Below, in pieces: positions 2 through 11,073 of a stretch of DNA of 64,000 nucleotides. The notes beneath the pieces are model-generated. The model was not told where the DNA came from, made no database searches, and worked only from the letters and a program-made list of their open reading frames with translations. The stretch is taken from assembly GCA_031372005.1 (NCBI GenBank), contig JANMKK010000023.1, positions 28,724 through 92,723 on the forward strand. The letters are read 5' to 3'. Source of the DNA: Rubrivivax sp. Lineage in GTDB: Bacteria; Pseudomonadota; Gammaproteobacteria; Burkholderiales; Burkholderiaceae_C. The position numbers were made by a program, and so were the translations under genes. The stretch's first letter is position 1. Every line of letters starts with the position of its first letter.

Positions 2-745
2 CTGCTGGATGCGGGCTGCGGCAGCGGCGAGAAGGCCCGCGAGCTGGCGCTGGCCTTCCCCGACCATGAGGTCGTGGCCATCGACCAGTCCAACTCGATT
101 GCCCGCACCGCGTGGGAGAACGCTGATTTGCCCAACCTGCATTTCGTCCAGGCGAACGTCTGGTACCCGCCCTTGGCGCGCCAAGGCTTCCACTTCGCCA
201 TGAGCATCGGCGTGCTGCACCACACGCCAGACACCCGCCGCGCCTTCAACGCCGTGTCCGAGCTCGTGGCGCCGGGGGGCGACTTCATGACCTGGATCTA
301 CCCGTTGCCGCACGAAGACACCTTCTGGGCCGGGCTGTACCGTCAGCGCGACCGCCACTTTCTCGGCTTGGCCCACCGTCTGCCGCACGCCGCAACGATG
401 GCGCTGTGCCGGGTCTACGTTGCGGTCTGCTTCCCGTGGGTGCTGCGGTTCCTCAAAGCCCAGTGGCGCGTCAACCGCGACCGCTTCCCGATCTATCCCG
501 ACAGGCCCACGCTGCGCGAATTGTTCCGCAGCTCGGTCTTCCTGTCGTTTGACAACGTGATGCCGCCGCACCAGTTCCGCCATGGGCGTGAGACGGTTTG
601 CGGCTGGTACGCCGAACAGGGCTATGGCGCAGTCGACGAGCGCTACCCCGGCTTCTTCCACGCCCTGCGCCAGCCCGACACGGTTCAGGCGCCAATTCAC
701 TCGGCCGCCGCTGCCGCCCCCACGACCCCAGGAGTGCGTTCATGA
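2..745 (+). CDS. Class I SAM-dependent methyltransferase (5' partial; true start lies before the window)
   Basis: The frame of ORF 74..745 is open from base 2 and reads LLDAGCGSGEKA (SAM-binding motif I). It also has SIGVLHHTPD (motif typical of Methyltransf_11/25 enzymes). The TGA overlaps the next ATG (ATGA 742-745). Confidence 0.88.
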   Translation: MLDAGCGSGEKARELALAFPDHEVVAIDQSNSIARTAWENADLPNLHFVQANVWYPPLARQGFHFAMSIGVLHHTPDTRRAFNAVSELVAPGGDFMTWIYPLPHEDTFWAGLYRQRDRHFLGLAHRLPHAATMALCRVYVAVCFPWVLRFLKAQWRVNRDRFPIYPDRPTLRELFRSSVFLSFDNVMPPHQFRHGRETVCGWYAEQGYGAVDERYPGFFHALRQPDTVQAPIHSAAAAAPTTPGVRS

Positions 746-1080
746 CCCCCGTTGCAGAGACCCTGAACCCCGCGCTTGAGGACAAGCTCAGCGCCTTCCT
801 TGTCAAGCTGCTGAAGCTGGGCCCGGACGTGAGCCTGACGCCCGAGGGCGATCTCATCCAGCAGATCGGGATGGATTCGATCGAGGCCTTCGACGCGGTG
901 GCGACGTTGCATGAGCTGCTGGAGGCGGCCATCCCCGATGACTTCGATCCCCGTGTCGTGAGCACGGTGCGCGGGCTGGCAACCTACGTCAGCAGCAGCT
1001 TCGGCACGGACATGGTCAAGCGCTTCCTGGCCATGGACCTGGACCGGTGCAGCGTCTTCGAACAGCGGGAGGATCTCTGA
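742..1080 (+). CDS. Stand-alone acyl carrier protein (112 aa) with a C-terminal extension
   Basis: GMDSIEAFD phosphopantetheine-attachment motif; ggag RBS upstream; ATGA overlap with the methyltransferase stop. Confidence 0.9.
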   Translation: MTPVAETLNPALEDKLSAFLVKLLKLGPDVSLTPEGDLIQQIGMDSIEAFDAVATLHELLEAAIPDDFDPRVVSTVRGLATYVSSSFGTDMVKRFLAMDLDRCSVFEQREDL

Positions 1081-1586
1081 CACCGCCGCTGCGTTTCGTG
1101 GCAGCCGACATCCAGCGCCTGCTGCCCCACCGGGGCGCCGCCCTGTTCCTGGACGAAGCCGAGGTGTTCGGATCGTCAGCGCGCGGTAGCGCCTGCTGGC
1201 GTGGCGAGCATCCGCATCTGCAGGGCCACTTTCCCGGGCAGCCCGTGGTGCCCGGGGTCTACCTCCTGGAGGCGGCGGCCCAGTTGGCGGGCGTGGCCGC
1301 GCTGGCCGGCGACGAAGCGGCATCGCAAGGCCGCACCGGCGTGCTTGCCGCCGTGCGCAGGAGCCTGTTCCACCGCCTCGTGCGACCGGGTGAGCGCGTG
1401 CACTACACGCTGGACGTTCGCACCGTGTCCCAAGGTGCCATGGTGCAGGCCAGCGGCAGCGCCTCGGTGGCCGAGCACAAGGTGCTGACGGTTGAACTCA
1501 CCGTGGCGCTCGTGGCCGCATCGGCACTGCAGCCCATCAATGGTGCGACGGCGCCGCAGCAGCACGCCATGCAGGGGGTTGCGTGA
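1077..1586 (+). CDS. FabZ/FabA-type 3-hydroxyacyl-ACP dehydratase (hotdog fold); start uncertain (CTG 1077 or nearby; ORF open from 1047)
   Basis: LLPHR and GHFPGQPVVPGVYLLEAAAQ are FabZ signature motifs. CTGA at 1077-1080 overlaps the ACP stop, downstream of a gggagg RBS. Confidence 0.88.
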   Translation: MTPPLRFVAADIQRLLPHRGAALFLDEAEVFGSSARGSACWRGEHPHLQGHFPGQPVVPGVYLLEAAAQLAGVAALAGDEAASQGRTGVLAAVRRSLFHRLVRPGERVHYTLDVRTVSQGAMVQASGSASVAEHKVLTVELTVALVAASALQPINGATAPQQHAMQGVA

Positions 1587-2878
1587 GCCCGCAGGGCCGC
1601 CCCAAGGGCGAACACCGGAGTGCGCAGCACGAAGGTACGCCAGTGAGCAGCGCCACCATCACCGACCGCCAGCGCGTCGTGATCACGGGCGTGGGTGTGG
1701 TGTCGCCTTTTGGCGCCGGCGTGCCCCGCTTCTGGCAGGCCCTGCTGGCAGGTGCATCGGCGATGCGCCCGGTCACGGGCTTTGACGGCACGCGCTATCG
1801 CAGCGCACAAGGAGGCGAGGTGCCTGCCGAAGTCTATGGGGACGCGGCCGCACGGCAGCGCTGCGGCGCCCCGCTGGAGGACGGGACCTACTTCCTCGCG
1901 CTTGCTGCTGAGGAAGCGCTGGGTGCCGCAGGGCTGCGGCTGCCGCTGGTTGACCCTGCGGATGCCGGGGCGGTGCTTGGCACCCTGTGCGCAGGCATGC
2001 GCGCGCTGCAGGTGTTGTGCGGGCGATGCGATGCCGACATGCCAGCCGACATGGACGTGCAGGCCGCTACCGCGTCTTACCAGCTGAACTTTCTCTGCGA
2101 ACGCTATGGGCTGGGAGGACCGAGTTCGCTGGTCTCCACGGCCTGCTCGTCGACCACCGACGCGCTGGGCTACGCCTTCGACCTCGTGCGCAGCGGGCGC
2201 TGCAGCGTCTGCCTGACCGGCGGCGGCGACGTGCTGGCCGAATCCATCCACAGTGCCTTCAACGGGCTGCAGTCCATCACCACCACGCAGGCGCGGCCGT
2301 TCGACCGCGGACGCGACGGTTTTTTCATCGGCGAGGGTGCGGCAGTGCTGGTGCTGGAATCGCTTGACCATGCACGCCAGCGCGGCGCACCGGTGCTGGC
2401 CGAGGTGCTGGGCTATGGCCTGTCGAACACGGCACACCACCTCACCGCCACGTCCGAAGACGGTGCCGGCGAGGCGCTGGCCGTCGAGCGCGCACTGCAG
2501 GATGCAGGGCTGGCACCCGGGCAGGTGGACTACATCAACTGCCACGGCACCGGCACCCGACACAACGATGCGTCGGAGGTCGGCGCCATCAACCGCGTGT
2601 TCGGCGAGGCCGCGCCGCGGGTGCGGCTGGCGTCCAACAAGTCGTCGTTCGGGCACTGCATGGGCGCCGCAGGGGCGCTGGAAGCCGTGTCCACGGTGCT
2701 GTCGCTGGCGCACCAGTGCATCCCGCCGACGCTGAACACGAGGGCCGACGAACCCGCGCTGCGCAGCACCGTCGTCGTTGACGCGCCGCAGAGCCTGCCG
2801 ATACGCCACGCGCTGACGCAGTCCTTCGGCTTCGGCGGCGCCTGCTCGTGTGTCGCGCTGGGGCGGTACGACGGATGA
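1583..2878 (+). CDS. Beta-ketoacyl-ACP synthase (FabF-like KS-alpha), catalytically intact
   Basis: VVITGVGVVSPFG, STACSS (Cys), HGTGT and KSSFGHCMGAAG (His-His); GTGA overlap with the upstream stop. Confidence 0.92.
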   Translation: MSPQGRPKGEHRSAQHEGTPVSSATITDRQRVVITGVGVVSPFGAGVPRFWQALLAGASAMRPVTGFDGTRYRSAQGGEVPAEVYGDAAARQRCGAPLEDGTYFLALAAEEALGAAGLRLPLVDPADAGAVLGTLCAGMRALQVLCGRCDADMPADMDVQAATASYQLNFLCERYGLGGPSSLVSTACSSTTDALGYAFDLVRSGRCSVCLTGGGDVLAESIHSAFNGLQSITTTQARPFDRGRDGFFIGEGAAVLVLESLDHARQRGAPVLAEVLGYGLSNTAHHLTATSEDGAGEALAVERALQDAGLAPGQVDYINCHGTGTRHNDASEVGAINRVFGEAAPRVRLASNKSSFGHCMGAAGALEAVSTVLSLAHQCIPPTLNTRADEPALRSTVVVDAPQSLPIRHALTQSFGFGGACSCVALGRYDG

Positions 2879-2912
2879 ACGCCAGGCCAGCGCGCACCAG
2901 AGGAAGCAGTCC

Positions 2913-4109
2913 ATGCAGGATGTCGTGATCACGGGGATCGGGGTGCTCGGTCCCCACGGCGTGGGCGTCGAGCGCATCGCCGCTGCCGCGCGGGCGCGGC
3001 AGCGGCCTTTCGCCGCCTGGCCCGCTGCGGCCCATCCGCCGCACGCCGAAGCGCTGATCGCGCAGGTCGGTGACTACCCCAAGGCGCGCTACTTCAACGA
3101 TCGCCAGCTGCGCATGATGGACAAGGCGATGTGCCTGTCGGCCTTCGCGGCCGGCACCGCGCTGGAATCTGCGGGTTGGGCCGACGGACAGGCGCCTGGC
3201 GAGACGGCCACCTTGCTGGGCACGATGCGCGCCGAGCAGCCCTCGGTGCACAAGTTCCTGCAGCCGCTGCTGCAGGGCAGGCCAGAGCGGATCAACCCCG
3301 CCGAGTTTCCGCAGATCGCGCGCAACATCGCCTGCGGTCAACTGGCCATCCGCTTCGGCTTGCGCGGCCCCAGCACGGTCCTGGCATCGGGGCCGCTGGC
3401 GGGGCTGGAAGCGCTGGCCAGAGCCGCCGACTTCGTCGCCGCCGGGCGTTGCCAGGTGGCGCTGGCCGGTGGCCTGGACGTGCTGTCACGGTTTTCGCTG
3501 TACGTCGGCAGGCACCTCTACGGCGACTGCATGCAAGCCGCCTGCCCCCGGTTCTTCGGCACCGAGACTGGCTACCTCGTTCCGTCCGAAGGGGCCTGCC
3601 TGCTGGTCGTGGAATCTGCCGCACATGCTGCGCAGCGCGGTGCCCGCCCGCTGGCCCGGCTGCGCGGCTGGTCCGCAGGCCGCGCAGCCGGCCAGGCACT
3701 GGAGCCCGCGCTCGCGCGGGGGTGGCAGCGGCTGCTGTCAGCGGCGCAGCGGGAGCCAGCCGACGTCGGCGTGGTCGCCGCCGGGGCGGGCGGCGGCAAC
3801 CGCCCGCACGAACAGGCCGAAACCAACGCGCTGGCCGCCTGGTTGGCCGGCTCCGACACACCAGCGCGCGTCTCGGCACCTTGCGCGTGGGTCGGCGAAG
3901 GCGAGGCGTGGACCGGTGCGCTGTTGGCCGCGATGGCTGTGCAGGCCCTCACCAGCGGCGACGTGCCACCCACTGCCGGCGTCTGTGCCGAAGCGCCGGC
4001 CCCGCTGGCAGAACGCGCCGCCGGCGGCGCCGTGGCGGCGCCCTGTGCACTGGTCACCGCCACGGAGAGCCACGGCGCGTGGATCAGCCTCTTGCTGGAG
4101 CAGCCATGA
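2913..4109 (+). CDS. Cys-less ketosynthase-like protein (chain length factor / KS-beta partner)
   Basis: The thiolase-fold N-terminus MQDVVITGIGVLGP is present, but the active-site position reads TVLASGPLAG (no Cys), and the HGTGT and GH motifs are absent. The gene lies directly after an intact KS. Confidence 0.8.
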   Translation: MQDVVITGIGVLGPHGVGVERIAAAARARQRPFAAWPAAAHPPHAEALIAQVGDYPKARYFNDRQLRMMDKAMCLSAFAAGTALESAGWADGQAPGETATLLGTMRAEQPSVHKFLQPLLQGRPERINPAEFPQIARNIACGQLAIRFGLRGPSTVLASGPLAGLEALARAADFVAAGRCQVALAGGLDVLSRFSLYVGRHLYGDCMQAACPRFFGTETGYLVPSEGACLLVVESAAHAAQRGARPLARLRGWSAGRAAGQALEPALARGWQRLLSAAQREPADVGVVAAGAGGGNRPHEQAETNALAAWLAGSDTPARVSAPCAWVGEGEAWTGALLAAMAVQALTSGDVPPTAGVCAEAPAPLAERAAGGAVAAPCALVTATESHGAWISLLLEQP

Positions 4110-4927
4110 CTGCTCCGGCGACCGTGATCATGCCCGCGGACGTGCCGCAGCCCGGCCCGCGCAGCGCCAGCGGGCCCCGCCGCGCGACGCTGGTCACCGG
4201 CGCCAGCCGCGGCATCGGGCGCGCCATCGCGATGGCCCTGGCCGACCCGGCGCGCCCGGTGTTCGTCAACGCCCGCATCGACGCGCAGGCGGCCGAAGCC
4301 ACCTGTGCGGCCATCCGCGATGCCGGTGGCGTGGCCCACGCGATCCTGGCCGACGTGAGCGACGCGCAGGCCGTGCAGTCGCTGTTCGCGCAGGTGCGCG
4401 ACCACGGCTGCTGGGTCCACACGTTGGTCAACAACGCCGGCATCGTGCGCGACGGCATCACCGCCACGATGCCGCTGGCGGCCTGGCGCGACGTGCTGGC
4501 CACCAACCTGGACGGCAGCTTCCTGTGTGCCAAGGCGGCGATCCCGTCGATGATCACGCGCCGCAGCGGGCAGATCCTGAACGTCGCATCGGTGGCCGGG
4601 CTGCGGCCCCAGGCCGGCCAGGCGAACTACGCCGCCGCCAAGGCAGGCCTGGTGGCACTGACACGCGCACTGGCGCGCGAACTGGGGCGCTACGGCATCC
4701 GTGTCAACGCGGTTGCGCCGGGTTTCATCGACACCGAGATGCTGGCCCCGCTGCGCGCCAGCGACAGGGGCAGCGCGATGCTCGACGGCGTGCGCGACAC
4801 GCAGATCCCGCTGGCGCGTCTGGGTTCGGCCGAGGAGGTGGCCAAGGCGGCCGCCTTCCTGTGCTCCGCGGACGCCGCCTACATCACCGGGCACGTGCTG
4901 GTGGTCGACGGGGGTCTGAGTGCATGA
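4106..4927 (+). CDS. fabG: 3-oxoacyl-ACP reductase (FabG-like SDR)
   Basis: TGASRGIG, NNAG, YAAAK, VNAVAPGFIDT, ITGHVLVVDGG; ATGA overlap at 4106-4109. Confidence 0.92.
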   Translation: MTAPATVIMPADVPQPGPRSASGPRRATLVTGASRGIGRAIAMALADPARPVFVNARIDAQAAEATCAAIRDAGGVAHAILADVSDAQAVQSLFAQVRDHGCWVHTLVNNAGIVRDGITATMPLAAWRDVLATNLDGSFLCAKAAIPSMITRRSGQILNVASVAGLRPQAGQANYAAAKAGLVALTRALARELGRYGIRVNAVAPGFIDTEMLAPLRASDRGSAMLDGVRDTQIPLARLGSAEEVAKAAAFLCSADAAYITGHVLVVDGGLSA

Positions 4928-7031
4928 ATTGAATCCCGTTGTGGCGCTCGCTGGGCAGCGCCCGGTGCAGGCGCAGGTTCAGGTGCCGCTGCTGCGGCGG
5001 CTGTTCAGCCCGGTCACGCTCAACGGGCTGGACCTGCCTAACCGCGTGTTGATGAGTTCGATGCACCTGAACCTCGACACCTGCCCGGACGCCTACGAGC
5101 GCATGGCTCGCTTTTACGCGCTGCGCGCGCGCGAGGGCGTCGGCCTGATCGTCACCGCAGGGTGCAGCCCGGACGAAGCCGGCCGTGCGGCGGCGGGGTC
5201 GTTCTCGCTGGACCATGACGAGCTCATCGACGCGCACCGCGCCATCACCACCGCCGTGCATGCAGAAGGCGGCCGTGTCGCGCTGCAGATCCTGCACTTC
5301 GGGCGCGAAGGGTTCCACGGCGGCATCGTGGCGCCGTCCGCGATCCGCCTCGTGTCGAGCCTGTTCACGCCGCGTGCGCTGACGGAAGAAGGCATCCAGC
5401 GCACGATCGCGGCGCATGCCGACTGCGCCGCGCGTGCCATGGCCGCCGGTTACGACGCCATCGAACTGATCTTTTCGCAGGGCTTCCTGGTCCACGAATT
5501 CCTGGCGCCGGCCTGCAACCGGCGCGAGGACCGGTGGGGCGGAGCGTTCGAGAACCGCGCGCGGCTGGCCGTGGCCATCGCGCAGGCCGTGCGCGCGCGT
5601 GTGGGGCCGGCGTGCCCCCTGATCTTCCGCGTGCCCTGCATGGACCTGCTGGAAGGCGGGCTGCCGGCACACGAATCGCTGGCACTGGTGGCCGCGCTGC
5701 GCCCTTTCGGCATCGACCTGCTGAACGTGAGCATCGGCTGGCACGAATCGCAGACGCCCACCATCGCCATGGTCGTGCCGCGCGCGGCCTTCGTCGCTGC
5801 GTCGCGCCTGGTGCGCCAGCACCATCCCGATCTGAAGACCGCCATCAGCAACCGCATCAACGACCCGCGGGACGCCGAAGCGCTGCTGCTGGAAGGTGAT
5901 GCCGATGTGATCGCGCTGGCGCGACCCTTCTTGGCCGACCCGGCCTGGGTGCGCAAGGCGCGCAGCAACGACTTCGACGGCATCAACACCTGCATCGCCT
6001 GCAACCAGAGTTGCCTGGACTACGTGCTCACCGGCCGCCCTGTGGGCTGCAGCGTGAACCCCGACTGCAACCTGCCAGGCGAAGGCCACTACCCGCCGCT
6101 TGTGCGGCCGCTCACGCGGCCGCTGACCGTGGCGGTGGCCGGTGGCGGCATCGCGGGCATGGGCGCGGCGTTGTACCTGGCCCGACGGGGCGCCCGCGTG
6201 GTGCTGTTCGAGGCCGCTACCGAACTTGGCGGCCAGCTCCGGCTGGCCGCGCGCATTCCCGACAAGGCCGAGTTCCGCGAGACCATCCGCTTCCATGCCC
6301 AGGCTTTGCTGCGGGCCGGTGTCGCCGTGCGGCTGTCCAGCCCCTTCGACGGGGCCGCGTGCACCGCAGGGCACGAGGGCCACCCCTGGGACCATGTGGT
6401 GCTGGCCCACGGCAGCGTGTCGCACCGGCCCGGCATCGAGGGCGAGCAACTGCCGCACGTGCTGGACTACCGCGACGTGCTCGACCGCGGCGTTCCGGTG
6501 CTCGGGCCTGTCGTCATCGTCGGCGGCGGCGGCGTGGCCTGCGACGTGGCCAAGTTCATCAGCGCCGGCGCCAAGGCGCGCGCATTTCGCGGCGACGACC
6601 ACCTGCTCCACCACGCACAGGGCTGGGACCTGAAGCCTTACCTCGCGCTGCCGGCAGCAGCCGGCGGGCCGTTGCAGATCACGCTGCTGCAGCGGTCCAG
6701 CCGCAAGATCGCGCACCGGGTGGGGCGCACGACGCGGTGGATCGTGCTGCGCGGTCTGCAGGAAGCGGGCGCGACGTGGCGCAACGGCGTCGACGTGGTC
6801 CGTATCGAAGACGACGGCGTGCTGGTGCGCACGCGGGCCAGCGGCCGCGAAAGCCGGCTGCCGGCGCGCACCGTCATCCTGGCTGCGGGGCAGGACCCGG
6901 CACCGGTTCCGCTGGCCGGGCCGCTGCTGGCGGCGGTGTCGCACTCCGTGATCGGCGCCGCAGAGAGCGCCGGGATGAACATCACCGGCGCCTTGCGCGC
7001 GGCCTACCAACTGGCACTGCAACTGCGATGA
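4920..7031 (+). CDS. fadH: FadH-type NADPH-dependent 2,4-dienoyl-thioester reductase (FMN TIM barrel, 4Fe-4S, FAD domains), with Phe at the catalytic Tyr position
   Basis: SMHLNL, GWHES, LARPFLADP, CIACNQSCLD...CSVNP (4Fe-4S), GGGIAG and GGGGVACD Rossmann motifs; about 700 aa. Confidence 0.85.
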   Translation: MHELNPVVALAGQRPVQAQVQVPLLRRLFSPVTLNGLDLPNRVLMSSMHLNLDTCPDAYERMARFYALRAREGVGLIVTAGCSPDEAGRAAAGSFSLDHDELIDAHRAITTAVHAEGGRVALQILHFGREGFHGGIVAPSAIRLVSSLFTPRALTEEGIQRTIAAHADCAARAMAAGYDAIELIFSQGFLVHEFLAPACNRREDRWGGAFENRARLAVAIAQAVRARVGPACPLIFRVPCMDLLEGGLPAHESLALVAALRPFGIDLLNVSIGWHESQTPTIAMVVPRAAFVAASRLVRQHHPDLKTAISNRINDPRDAEALLLEGDADVIALARPFLADPAWVRKARSNDFDGINTCIACNQSCLDYVLTGRPVGCSVNPDCNLPGEGHYPPLVRPLTRPLTVAVAGGGIAGMGAALYLARRGARVVLFEAATELGGQLRLAARIPDKAEFRETIRFHAQALLRAGVAVRLSSPFDGAACTAGHEGHPWDHVVLAHGSVSHRPGIEGEQLPHVLDYRDVLDRGVPVLGPVVIVGGGGVACDVAKFISAGAKARAFRGDDHLLHHAQGWDLKPYLALPAAAGGPLQITLLQRSSRKIAHRVGRTTRWIVLRGLQEAGATWRNGVDVVRIEDDGVLVRTRASGRESRLPARTVILAAGQDPAPVPLAGPLLAAVSHSVIGAAESAGMNITGALRAAYQLALQLR

Positions 7032-7068
7032 CGTGGTCCGGGCCATTCTGCAAGAGGAGTTTTGGCAC

Positions 7069-7947
7069 ATGCAAACCGTAGCGGTCCTGGGCGCAGGGGT
7101 CCTGGGCAGCGCCGTCGTGCGCCGCCTTGTCGAACTGGGGGTGCATGTGCGCCTCTACAACCGCGATCGCAACAAGGCGCAGGCGCTGCAGGGCCCGCAG
7201 GTCGTCGTCTGCGACTCGCCCGCCGGCGCCGTCGACGGCGCCGATCTGAGCCTGGCCGTGCTGACGGACACCGAGGCGTTGCGCCAGGTGGTCGAATCGC
7301 CCCAGGGCGTTCTGGCCGGCCCGCGCCTGCCCTGCTTCACGCTCATCGACCTCAGCACGCATGGACCCGCCACGTTGATGCCGCTGGTCGAGCGCTGGTC
7401 CGGCCAGGGATTGGCTTATGTCGAGGCGCCGGTCACCGGCAGCGTCCACGACGCGCTGCACGGACGCTTGAACTTCCTCGTCGGCGGTGCGGTGGCACAC
7501 GTCGAAGCCACCCGGCCCTTCCTCGAACGCCTGGGGCACCGCGCCTACCACCTGGGTCCGATCGGCAGCGGCAGCACCGCCAAACTGGCACTCAACCTGC
7601 TGGTGGGCACCATGGCCTGGGGGCTGGCCGAAGCCACGGCCATGCTCGAGGCGGCCCATCTCGATGTCGAGGCGTTCCATGATGCGCTGGCCTCCAGCGG
7701 GCTGGCGTCGCCGCTGTACCAGCGTCTGGGGCAGCGCTACATGAGCCGCGACTTCCAACCCCGCTTCTCGCTGGCCAACCTGGAGAAGGACGTCGTGTTG
7801 ATCAATGCCGAAGCGCATCGGCTGGGCCTGCCGGGAAGGCAGGCCCGGCTGCTGGGCAAGGTGCTGGCCGAACTGAGTCCCGAGACCAAGGCACACGACT
7901 ACTCGATCCTGGTCACATGCTCCCTTCCCGAGCCGCCGCCACAGTAG
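7069..7947 (+). CDS. NAD(P)-dependent beta-hydroxyacid dehydrogenase family protein (3-hydroxyisobutyrate/6-phosphogluconate DH-like)
   Basis: VAVLGAGVLG, YNR, EAPVTGS, and AKLALN with the catalytic Lys; gaggag RBS at about 7054. Confidence 0.85.
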   Translation: MQTVAVLGAGVLGSAVVRRLVELGVHVRLYNRDRNKAQALQGPQVVVCDSPAGAVDGADLSLAVLTDTEALRQVVESPQGVLAGPRLPCFTLIDLSTHGPATLMPLVERWSGQGLAYVEAPVTGSVHDALHGRLNFLVGGAVAHVEATRPFLERLGHRAYHLGPIGSGSTAKLALNLLVGTMAWGLAEATAMLEAAHLDVEAFHDALASSGLASPLYQRLGQRYMSRDFQPRFSLANLEKDVVLINAEAHRLGLPGRQARLLGKVLAELSPETKAHDYSILVTCSLPEPPPQ

Positions 7948-9125
7948 CGGCCCTCTGCCTGGCCTGCGCGGCGCACGCACAGTCCAGCGGCGGCGGCTAC
8001 CTGGCGCTGGCGCACGCCGCAGCCATCGAGGGCGGTGGCACGGTGCTCAACCGCGCCGAGGCCGGCCTGCATGGGCGAGCCGCCTTCGGGGCCTGCCAGG
8101 CCAGGTTCGACGTGCGGATCCGGCACGACGAGGCGCTGTCCACCCCACCCGGCACCGAAGGCGAACTGCGCGAAGCCGCCGTGCTTTGCCGGCTGGACCG
8201 CTGGTTGCTTCAGGCCGGTCGCCAATCGGTGGTCTGGGGCAAAGCAGACGGACTGGCCGTGCTGGACGCCGTGCATCCGTTCGACCGCCGCGAATTCCCG
8301 TTTGCCGATCGCGAGCAGGCGCGGTTGGCGCTGACGATATTGCGCGCCGAGGTCCGCGTCACCGACAACGACACGGTGCAGGGACTGTGGATTCCGGAAC
8401 GTCGCGAAGAACTTCTGCCCGCCCCGGGTGGTCGCTTCGCCGCCGGCTGGGGTGCTCAGGCAGCGTTGGCCAACACGGCGGCTGCCGCCAGCGGCCGGTG
8501 GCGGCAGCCGCAATGGGGCGGCCAATGGGAACACGGCGACCCGGGCCTGAGCTGGACCCTGAACGCCCTGCAGCGCTGGGCACCGCAGCCCGGCTGGGAT
8601 GTCGACCTGTCCACCGGCCGTGTCCAGCGCCGTGCATACCGGCAGACCATCATCGGCGGCAGCTTTGAATTCGAGGCGGGTGCGGGTTGGGTGCTGCGCG
8701 GCGAGGGGGCCACGACAGACCGCCAGGCGCTGCCTGTGGTGCCGGGTGCCGGGGTACCGCGCTTCAGCCGGCAGCGGAGCACCATCGTCGGCGCGGACCA
8801 CCTGTGGGACGACACGCTGCTGGCTGCCCAGTGGATGCGAACGGCGTGGCGGGGGCCCCTGCCCGAAGGCACCCGTCCTGCGCAGGACTGGCTGACACTG
8901 GCCGCCAGCCGCAGCGCCTGGCAGGACCGGCTGCACCTCAAGGCCTCGAGCGCATGGGACCTGACGCGCCGTGCGCGGTGGCTGCGTGCAGAGGCCAGGC
9001 TGCAGCGGTCCGCCACGTGGTCCGCAGCGTTCACCGTCGACGCCGTGCGCGGCCGCCCGGATTCCGTGCTCGGCGCCTTCCAGCCCGCGAGCCGGGTGGG
9101 GCTGAGCGTGCGGGCGGATTGGTAG
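7917..9125 (+). CDS. Secreted outer-membrane beta-barrel-like protein (DUF1302-like)
   Basis: Signal peptide (AALCLACAAHA/QS), GRQSVVWGKADG motif, alternating beta-strand pattern and C-terminal Trp. Confidence 0.6.
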   Translation: MLPSRAAATVAALCLACAAHAQSSGGGYLALAHAAAIEGGGTVLNRAEAGLHGRAAFGACQARFDVRIRHDEALSTPPGTEGELREAAVLCRLDRWLLQAGRQSVVWGKADGLAVLDAVHPFDRREFPFADREQARLALTILRAEVRVTDNDTVQGLWIPERREELLPAPGGRFAAGWGAQAALANTAAAASGRWRQPQWGGQWEHGDPGLSWTLNALQRWAPQPGWDVDLSTGRVQRRAYRQTIIGGSFEFEAGAGWVLRGEGATTDRQALPVVPGAGVPRFSRQRSTIVGADHLWDDTLLAAQWMRTAWRGPLPEGTRPAQDWLTLAASRSAWQDRLHLKASSAWDLTRRARWLRAEARLQRSATWSAAFTVDAVRGRPDSVLGAFQPASRVGLSVRADW

Positions 9126-9831: not shown

Positions 9832-11073
9832 ATGCCCATGACCACCACCGAGATCTTCCTGATCGCGATGCTGTTGATCTTCACGGCACCGTACCTGATC
9901 TGGCGCCTGGGCAACACCGACAGCTTCGCGCCGCTCGTCGTCGTGCAGATCCTGACCGGCATCCTGCTCGGGCCCGGCGTCCTTGGCGCAGCGCTGCCCG
10001 AATACCACGCCTTTGTCTTCACGCCGCAGGTGGTTGGCGCGCTGAACGGCATTGCCTGGTGGGCGGTGATGCTGTTCGTCTGGACCGCCGGCATTGAACT
10101 CAACCTGCAAGAGGCCTGGAAGCACCGCAAGGAGACGGCCACGGTGGCCGGCTTCGCACTGATCACGCCGCTGCTGTTCGGCTGCTTCGCCGCGGTGGCA
10201 CTGCTGGCGTGGAAGCAGTCGTGGATCGGGCCGAAGGGCATGCCCTGGCAGTTCATCGCGGGCGTGGGCATGGGTTGCGCCGTCACGGCCTTGCCGATCC
10301 TGGTGCTGTTCCTGGAAAAGCTGCACCTGCTGCGGCGCCCGCTCGGGCAGCGCGCATTGCGGTACGCCAGCTGCGACGACGTGGCGATCTGGGGCGTGCT
10401 GGCGCTGATCCTGCTGGATTGGGAGCGCATTGGCCGCCAGTCGATGTTTCTGGTCGGCTTCGGTTTCGCGGCGTGGGGCTTGCGCGCGCTCATGCGGCGC
10501 CTGCCGGAGTCTGACCGCTGGTACCTGGGCCTGATCTGGCTGGCGACCTGCGCGCTGGCCGCAGACTGGGCGGGCCTGCATTACATGGTCGGCGCCTTCC
10601 TGTCCGGCATGGTGCTGGACGCCGCCTGGTTCGACCACAAGCGCATGGACGCCATGCGCGACCATTTGCTGCTGGTGGCGATGCCGGTGTTCTTCCTCAG
10701 CACCGGCCTGCGCACGAACTGGAGCATCGGCGCGGACACCGTGTTCGTCGCGGCGGGCCTGCTGCTGATCGTCAGCATCGGGGGCAAGCTGCTGGGGGTG
10801 TCGATCGCCGCCAAGCTGCTCCGCTGGCCGCCGGGCGAGGCGCGCATGGTGGGCTGGCTGCTGCAGACCAAGGGTCTGATCGAGATCATCTTCGCCAACG
10901 TGCTGCTCGACAAGGGAATCATCTCCAGCGACGCCTTCACCGCGCTGCTGCTGATGGCGCTGGGCAGCACGGCGTTGGCGATCCCGATGCTCCGCAGCAG
11001 CCGGGCGCCTAGGTCATCGGTTCCGCAGGCGGGGCTGGCCGAGTTGCCTGTGGCAGGCAAGCCCGCCGACTGA
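9832..11073 (+). CDS. Cation:proton antiporter (CPA2 / Na+/H+ exchanger family)
   Basis: About 12 hydrophobic segments; GILLGP, GIEL, TALPIL, GAFLSG and KLLG...KGLIEIIF motifs. Confidence 0.88.
   Translation: MPMTTTEIFLIAMLLIFTAPYLIWRLGNTDSFAPLVVVQILTGILLGPGVLGAALPEYHAFVFTPQVVGALNGIAWWAVMLFVWTAGIELNLQEAWKHRKETATVAGFALITPLLFGCFAAVALLAWKQSWIGPKGMPWQFIAGVGMGCAVTALPILVLFLEKLHLLRRPLGQRALRYASCDDVAIWGVLALILLDWERIGRQSMFLVGFGFAAWGLRALMRRLPESDRWYLGLIWLATCALAADWAGLHYMVGAFLSGMVLDAAWFDHKRMDAMRDHLLLVAMPVFFLSTGLRTNWSIGADTVFVAAGLLLIVSIGGKLLGVSIAAKLLRWPPGEARMVGWLLQTKGLIEIIFANVLLDKGIISSDAFTALLLMALGSTALAIPMLRSSRAPRSSVPQAGLAELPVAGKPAD

Follow-up and report, generated by a model that had tools for sequence, protein, structure and literature searches.

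Does an enzyme that resembles FadH, E. coli's 2,4-dienoyl-CoA reductase (EC 1.3.1.34), belong to fatty-acid degradation when it is encoded at the end of a biosynthetic gene row, and which double bond would it leave behind? This question is raised by a contig of Rubrivivax sp. (assembly GCA_031372005.1, contig JANMKK010000023.1, positions 28,724 to 92,723), from which a stretch of 64,000 nucleotides, hereafter the window, was analysed. The open reading frame (ORF) at 4920-7031, P0001, codes for such a FadH-like protein and follows genes for an acyl carrier protein (ACP), a dehydratase (DH), a ketosynthase (KS), a Cys-less ketosynthase homologue resembling a chain-length factor (CLF) and a 3-oxoacyl-ACP reductase (KR). 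Judged from sequence and gene order, P0001 is probably the dedicated C=C reductase of a self-contained six-gene type II synthase cassette and would act on a dienoyl-ACP.

The FadH-like protein and its active-site motif

P0001 contains the Pfam domains Oxidored_FMN (PF00724) at residues 28-350 and Pyr_redox_2 (PF07992) at residues 403-662. In a phmmer search, E. coli FadH (PDB 1PS9) matched with E = 3e-137, residues 27-699 of P0001 aligning with residues 4-668 at about 38% identity, and 2-naphthoyl-CoA reductase was the second match. The following features of the ORF are relevant here.

4920-7031, plus strand: FadH-like reductase (FMN, [4Fe-4S], FAD, NADPH) of 703 aa, a member of the Gln/Phe branch (Pfam, match to 1PS9, AlphaFold2/Foldseek)
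5163-5165, plus strand: codon of Cys82, conserved in the branch, predicted at the C-terminal end of barrel strand 2
5307-5309, plus strand: codon of Glu130, conserved in the branch, predicted directly after barrel strand 3
5463-5504, plus strand: active-site motif ELIFSQGFLVHEFL, residues 182-195
5478-5480, plus strand: Gln187 codon CAG, aligned to E. coli Glu164
5484-5486, plus strand: Phe189 codon TTC, aligned to E. coli Tyr166
5493-5495, plus strand: His192 codon, aligned to E. coli Asn169
5742-5744, plus strand: His275 codon CAC, within GWHES, the retained equivalent of E. coli His252
5991-6050, plus strand: [4Fe-4S] cysteines Cys358, 361, 365 and 377, all four retained and aligned to the E. 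coli cysteine motif

The first-pass annotation had claimed that Phe and Gln replace Tyr166 and Glu164 of E. coli FadH and that the His acting as second proton donor is kept. Both substitutions and the retained His are confirmed by the translation and by the phmmer alignment, which places ELIFSQGFLVHEFL of P0001 onto EVMGSEGYLINEFL of 1PS9, is gap-free across the motif and pairs Gln187 with Glu164, Phe189 with Tyr166, His192 with Asn169 and His275 with His252. The structural comparison agrees: an AlphaFold2 model of P0001, computed from an alignment of 28 sequences (pLDDT 88.8, pTM 0.87), has 1PS9 as its top structural match in Foldseek (TM 0.87/0.91). Since the model is confident and the cofactor motifs are intact, P0001 looks like a working enzyme, and we predict a functional full-length FadH homologue.

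P0001 has the three-domain architecture, the four-Cys [4Fe-4S] motif and the His252 equivalent of FadH orthologues, but neither carries their S-E-G-Y motif with Glu164 and Tyr166 nor groups with canonical FadH in the tree described below. No NCBIfam model claims the protein, the scores for FadH-like families lying far under their cut-offs, and its relatives are named only "FAD-dependent oxidoreductase" by NCBI.

A rare branch of the FadH family

For a comparison of related sequences, the best 120 clusters (90% identity) listed in a search of 5.8 billion proteins were used. They form two groups.

Branch group, 69 clusters: 42-64% identity to P0001, motifs S-Q-G-F-L-[VIL]-H and G-W-H-[ED]-S, one cluster with Thr for Gln
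Canonical FadH group, 51 clusters: about 40-45% identity to P0001, motifs S-E-G-Y-[LF]-[IL]-N and G-W-H-E-A

At the positions of residues 187, 189 and 275, Gln, Phe and His are found in 69 of 70 related 90%-identity clusters, and Glu, Tyr and His in all 51 canonical FadHs. Because it is kept so consistently among the relatives, the Phe/Gln substitution is neither a chance event nor a sequencing error; it is the signature of an enzyme branch and not an isolated variant. In an unrooted maximum-likelihood tree, one branch with an SH-aLRT support of 100 divides the Gln/Phe group from canonical FadH. The four Fe-S cysteines and the glycine motifs for FAD and NADPH are invariant in the alignment.

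The Gln/Phe branch is rare. A library of 1.84 billion representatives, clustered at 50% identity, contains about nine clusters of it. Among 400 genomes sampled from the same phylum, none was found to have a member; 95 of them had a FadH homologue, all with at most 44% identity. A search of a plasmid collection gave no match. The genome of origin, a metagenome-assembled genome (MAG) of 4.17 Mb and 92.6% completeness, showed no second or canonical FadH homologue, the sole other match being a dinucleotide-fold of 66 residues. One branch member from a metagenome, P0065 (967 aa), is a fusion of the FadH-like reductase with a C-terminal thioesterase (PF00975). A different FadH-like group in the representative library (P0156, P0157) carries Phe in place of Tyr166 and Asn in place of His252; its motifs E-G-F-L and G-W-N-E-S thus lack both proposed proton donors.

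Linkage to a six-gene synthase cassette

The five genes preceding P0001 in the window were assigned as follows.

742-1080, plus strand: discrete ACP of 112 aa with the serine motif GMDS (translation; tblastn)
1047-1586, plus strand: FabZ/ApeI-like 3-hydroxyacyl-ACP dehydratase (NCBIfam FabZ E = 8e-22, below cut-off); start codon uncertain
1583-2878, plus strand: ketosynthase with the active-site Cys (STACSST) and both His motifs (Pfam ketoacyl-synt N- and C-terminal domains)
2850-4109, plus strand: Cys-less, CLF-like ketosynthase homologue (Pfam: N-terminal KS domain only)
4106-4927, plus strand: FabG-like 3-oxoacyl-ACP reductase (NCBIfam FabG subfamily NF009466, 237 bits against a cut-off of 222)

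In tblastn, the ACP shows 45-56% identity to the PP-binding genes that occupy its place in all branch loci, and the counterparts of the dehydratase in the other loci are FabA/ApeI-like. The KS is FabF-like in NCBIfam, with a score below the cut-off; the CLF, aligned to it, shows ASGPLAG at the position of the Cys and lacks both His motifs. Overlapping stop and start codons run from a methyltransferase gene at 2-745 through P0001: the methyltransferase stop overlaps the ACP start (ATGA), the DH stop the KS start (GTGA) and the CLF stop the KR start (ATGA), and the KR stop overlaps the start of P0001 by 8 bases. On this arrangement, the FadH-like gene is the sixth member of a row of genes predicted to be translationally coupled. 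Neither another enoyl reductase in the cassette nor a cyclase or aromatase in the regions read was found.

The same order (ACP, DH, KS, CLF, KR, FadH-like, on one strand) recurs in all ten further loci looked up across the branch. A pattern scan of metagenomes yielded 11 true homologues among 80 loci listed, the rest being mostly chance matches; upstream DNA is available for ten of the 11, and each of these ten carries cassette genes as far as its contig extends. With the window included, 21 of 21 informative loci have the FadH-like gene as the last of the cassette. None of the 109 canonical FadH loci inspected as a control had a KS or CLF match; 80 of them, with flanks of up to 10 kb, were the matches listed from a scan of a genome collection with a pattern common to canonical FadH. 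Stop/start overlaps of the cassette genes are frequent across the branch loci, and the identities of the cassette proteins rise and fall in step with that of the FadH-like protein, as expected for a unit that is inherited jointly.

Because all 21 informative loci end a KS-CLF cassette with this gene and none of the 109 canonical loci has one, the assignment of the FadH-like enzyme to biosynthesis, and not to beta-oxidation as for FadH, is well supported by gene context. The first-pass annotation had proposed an enzyme that is biosynthetic and probably ACP-directed. Its biosynthetic part is supported, and an ACP-bound substrate is suggested by the gene order.

Downstream of the cassette, the loci diverge. 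Massilia-type loci continue with genes for non-ribosomal peptide synthetases (NRPS), some loci with MacB/FtsX or MMPL exporters together with LolA-like proteins, and one with a phosphopantetheinyl transferase (PPTase) only. In a metagenomic locus (L117:11078-18156), two fatty-acid desaturases, two Metal_hydrol proteins (PF10118), a PPTase and a WS/DGAT wax-ester synthase follow, which points to a neutral lipid as the predicted product in that organism. The cassette family would feed a varied downstream chemistry, including NRPS, desaturase and wax-ester synthase, UbiA/prenyl loci and lipid exporters. The motif combination S-Q-G-F-L-[VI]-H, G-R-E and A-G-C provides a genome-mining signature for this uncharacterised six-gene family.

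Remodelling of the active site at several positions

The exchange of Tyr166 is only one of many differences. Twenty alignment positions are conserved within each group and differ between the branch and canonical FadH. In the barrel domain, the branch-specific residues are Cys82, Phe95, Glu130, Arg172, Gln187, Phe189, His192, Pro239 and Ser277, and Arg606 is a further one in the C-terminal part. Cys82 is a Cys in 97% of the branch clusters and in all nine representatives, at a position where canonical FadH has Ile, Phe or Val; Glu130 stands in place of a canonical Tyr (E. coli Tyr107). Among the nine representative clusters, Cys82, Glu130, Gln187, His192, Pro239, His275 and Arg606 are present in all nine and Phe189 in eight. 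The ninth, P0125 (L122:6461-8506), reads S-Q-G-Y-L-L-H and so has Tyr at the position of Phe189, but keeps Cys82, Glu130, Gln187 and His192 and lies in the same six-gene cassette, followed by MMPL and LolA-like genes. P0125 is a singleton from one assembled contig, and an assembly error is possible.

In the secondary structure of the model, Cys82 stands at the end of strand 2, and the other residues come just after further strands: Glu130 after strand 3, Gln187 and Phe189 after strand 4, His275 after strand 6. These placements, which refer to secondary-structure positions, would put the five residues on that side of the barrel where the family binds FMN and substrate. Several residues conserved in the branch (Cys82, Glu130, His192, Pro239 and Arg606) therefore indicate remodelling at more than one site, and the active site is, according to alignment and model, remodelled as a set, with Tyr107, Glu164 and Tyr166 replaced by Glu130, Gln187 and Phe189 and a Cys added. 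That Glu164 is lost, Glu130 and Cys82 are new and Tyr is tolerated in P0125 suggests that the role of proton donor may have moved.

Two further residues were considered and rejected. His192 is an unconvincing new proton donor because its position is variable in the representatives and His or Asn at this position of the helix is common in ordinary members of the OYE (old yellow enzyme) family. Asp266 was discarded as an active-site residue since the model puts it on the barrel's far side, at the N-terminal beginning of strand 6.

Proposed reaction and its product

In the proposed mechanism, the KS pair, KR and DH would assemble a conjugated 2,4-dienoyl (or polyenoyl) thioester on the ACP, an intermediate postulated because the cassette is without a FabI-type enoyl reductase. 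Electrons would pass from NADPH to FMN within the FadH-like enzyme, whose cofactor sites (FMN barrel, [4Fe-4S], FAD, NADPH) are kept, and a hydride would be delivered to the delta carbon of the dienoyl-ACP, as FadH does on dienoyl-CoA. The site of protonation would then decide between a 3-enoyl and a 2-enoyl chain. We regard these two products as equally probable, each falling a little short of an even chance, and leave a clearly smaller share to other outcomes. If the enzyme acts iteratively, the 3-enoyl route would give isolated double bonds spaced along the chain, and the 2-enoyl route a saturated chain that ends as an enoyl or dienoyl.

For the 3-enoyl product, His275 would protonate C2, making the enzyme a 1,4-(alpha,delta) reductase that yields beta,gamma thioesters. 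This outcome, to which we give somewhat less than even odds, draws on an analogy with an engineered enzyme: the Y166F variant of E. coli FadH, studied by Tu, Hubbard, Kim and Schulz in 2008, reportedly stays active and releases 3-enoyl-CoA via His252. P0001 resembles this variant in having Phe at the Tyr166 position with the His252 equivalent retained. The analogy agrees with the title of the study, which speaks of two proton donors and different products (Tu et al. 2008, Biochemistry 47:1167, title), and with the paper on bilirubin reductase (BilR), in which Tyr166 of FadH is presumed to donate a proton to one of the double-bond carbons. However, Y166F carries a single exchange relative to the wild type, whereas about 20 conserved positions are changed in the natural branch, among them several at the active-site face.

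For the 2-enoyl product, held to be no more and no less plausible than the former, reduction of the gamma,delta bond would be kept and another donor (Cys82, Glu130 or water) would supply the proton. P0001 would then work as a "lagging" enoyl reductase that saturates each double bond one cycle late and leaves a chain that is for the most part saturated, with a 2-enoyl or 2,4-dienoyl group at its end. Conserved in the branch and missing from canonical FadH, Cys82 and Glu130 are placed by the model where strands 2 and 3 have their C-terminal ends, and could act at the flavin face as proton donors to C4. The interchange of Tyr and Phe within the branch (P0125) fits a relocated donor role, and the cassette contains no other enzyme for enoyl reduction. 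Against this outcome, the placement of the two candidate donors is one of secondary structure.

A more far-reaching version of the 3-enoyl route appears possible but less likely than either product taken by itself: the Gln/Phe branch may be a new class of dienoyl-ACP reductases that add hydrogen across C2 and C5 and operate iteratively with KS-CLF, KR and DH. If true, regular isolated double bonds would be set in a fatty chain independently of FabA/FabB, desaturases and polyunsaturated fatty acid (PUFA) synthases, and the products would be passed by partner genes to outer-membrane lipids, lipopeptides or wax esters.

Several points weigh against the assignment of P0001 as a dienoyl-ACP reductase or against the 3-enoyl outcome. 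The ACP-bound substrate is deduced from the order of the genes, and the enzyme may instead have a role at the CoA level; its being the sole FadH homologue found in a 92.6%-complete MAG is also compatible with a housekeeping role. Gln in place of Glu164, Glu130 in place of Tyr107 and Cys82 at the flavin face weaken the analogy to a single mutant. Moreover, since P0125 keeps Tyr within the same cassette, Phe189 is not strictly needed for cassette function. Owing to these three changes and to the Tyr of P0125, the regiochemistry should not be read from the Phe alone. The branch nevertheless offers a natural experiment on the donor set and regiochemistry of FadH, with Tyr/Glu/His on the one side and Phe/Gln/His plus Cys and Glu on the other.

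Relation to known systems

E. coli FadH and P0001 share the three-domain architecture, the cofactor motifs and His252, but differ in Tyr166 to Phe, Glu164 to Gln, Asn169 to His and Tyr107 to Glu, and P0001 adds the conserved Cys82, Pro239 and Arg606. The one belongs to fatty-acid degradation, the other to a biosynthetic cassette and to a separate, fully supported branch. 2-Naphthoyl-CoA reductase (NCR, PDB 6QKG), BaiCD and BilR have the fold and the electron-transfer chain in common with P0001, but show 25% identity and unrelated substrates and gene contexts. These three enzymes demonstrate that the FadH-like family is repeatedly recruited to new substrates through changes in the active site.

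On the side of the synthases, the cassette resembles the polyene-type type II polyketide synthases (PKS) and aryl-polyene systems (ApeO-ApeC, Iga11-Iga12) in its discrete ACP, the KS with a Cys-less partner, the FabG-like KR, the FabZ/ApeI-like DH, the absence of a cyclase or aromatase in the regions read, and the LolA-like, MMPL or ABC export genes that are often nearby. These known systems are not known to contain a C=C reductase and give fully conjugated polyenes. The cassette departs from this feature by the FadH-like reductase, its sixth gene in every informative locus. The scores for the curated KS and KR families of aryl-polyene, flexirubin and cispentacin synthesis in NCBIfam remain below their cut-offs (AmcF 237 bits vs 325, FlxB 230 vs 340, AmcE 37 vs 140).

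Type II polyene synthases are considered to be without enoyl reduction. With a FadH-type reductase whose substrate must be a conjugated diene, such a cassette would gain a new control over the double bonds retained in the product, either by delaying saturation or by moving a bond out of conjugation. In the full-text literature searched, which lacks most subscription journals, neither a description of the branch nor a paper connecting a FadH-like enzyme with a KS-CLF cassette was found.

Neighbouring genes and alternative roles

Three further genes adjoin the cassette in the window.

2-745, plus strand: methyltransferase (Pfam methyltransferase domains), with the 5' end lying some 370 bases ahead of the window
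7033-7947, plus strand: 3-hydroxyisobutyrate-dehydrogenase-like (HIBADH-like) NAD(P) oxidoreductase (Pfam NAD_binding_2, NAD_binding_11)
7917-9125, plus strand: DUF1302-like putative outer-membrane protein (Pfam DUF1302, E = 3.7e-7)

The methyltransferase, which has a match to NCBIfam BioC below the cut-off (E = 4e-8), shares 76-79% identity with the correspondingly placed methyltransferases of a Chromobacterium violaceum locus (L003) and of locus L120. The HIBADH-like gene starts 1 base past the stop of P0001 and has 50% identity to its positional counterpart in these two loci, and the DUF1302-like gene is 42% identical to the DUF1302 gene that takes this place in L120. Upstream on the same contig are genes for a HAD hydrolase, UbiA, a polyprenyl synthase, an ABC ATPase, a MacB/FtsX permease, a LolA-like protein (LolA-like/DUF1329) and a NAD_binding_4 thioester reductase. 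Together, this upstream part (L121:9273-18387) and window positions 2-9125 make up a conserved locus with about 17 genes. In C. violaceum the cassette is flanked by the same genes, and in L120 by most of them. Judged by its exporter and LolA-like genes, the locus may make an outer-membrane lipid. It is pure speculation that the BioC-like methyltransferase, the thioester reductase and the HIBADH-like "semialdehyde" reductase provide a methyl-esterified malonyl primer as in biotin synthesis.

The window also contains a trans-acyltransferase (trans-AT) PKS, which meets the conserved locus in converging orientation near 11000. The reductase and its cassette might serve this PKS, either by supplying a partly reduced starter acyl-ACP or by acting in trans on the assembly line, a role that we consider unlikely. 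Starter supply is conceivable because no loading module precedes the KS with which the first PKS protein (60915-54007, minus strand) opens, and the Massilia-type cassettes directly preceding NRPS genes are a precedent for the feeding of an assembly line. However, the whole locus is syntenic with those of C. violaceum and L120, in whose flanks, as far as read, there is no trans-AT PKS, so that the cassette belongs to a conserved locus of its own. This locus has its own release enzyme and exporter, and the PKS has its own acyltransferase-enoyl reductase (AT-ER, with FabD insert and NMO domain; L124:306-2084, minus strand), which forms the upstream end of the PKS operon with nothing PKS-like beyond. 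The connection to polyene conjugation in the neighbouring modular PKS, implied by the first-pass annotation, is consequently left without support.

The reading of P0001 as a normal catabolic 2,4-dienoyl-CoA reductase, or as a primer or tailoring enzyme at the CoA level that merely adjoins synthase genes, would fit its being the only FadH homologue detected in the genome and its FadH-like overall fold and cofactor set, but is very improbable in view of the cassette linkage (21 of 21 against 0 of 109 loci), the predicted translational coupling with the KR gene, the loss of the catalytic Tyr and Glu of FadH, and the sample of 400 genomes of the phylum, 95 of them with canonical FadH, in which no branch member was found. 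Several branch proteins are labelled "2,4-dienoyl-CoA reductase" by JGI and should not be counted as beta-oxidation genes.

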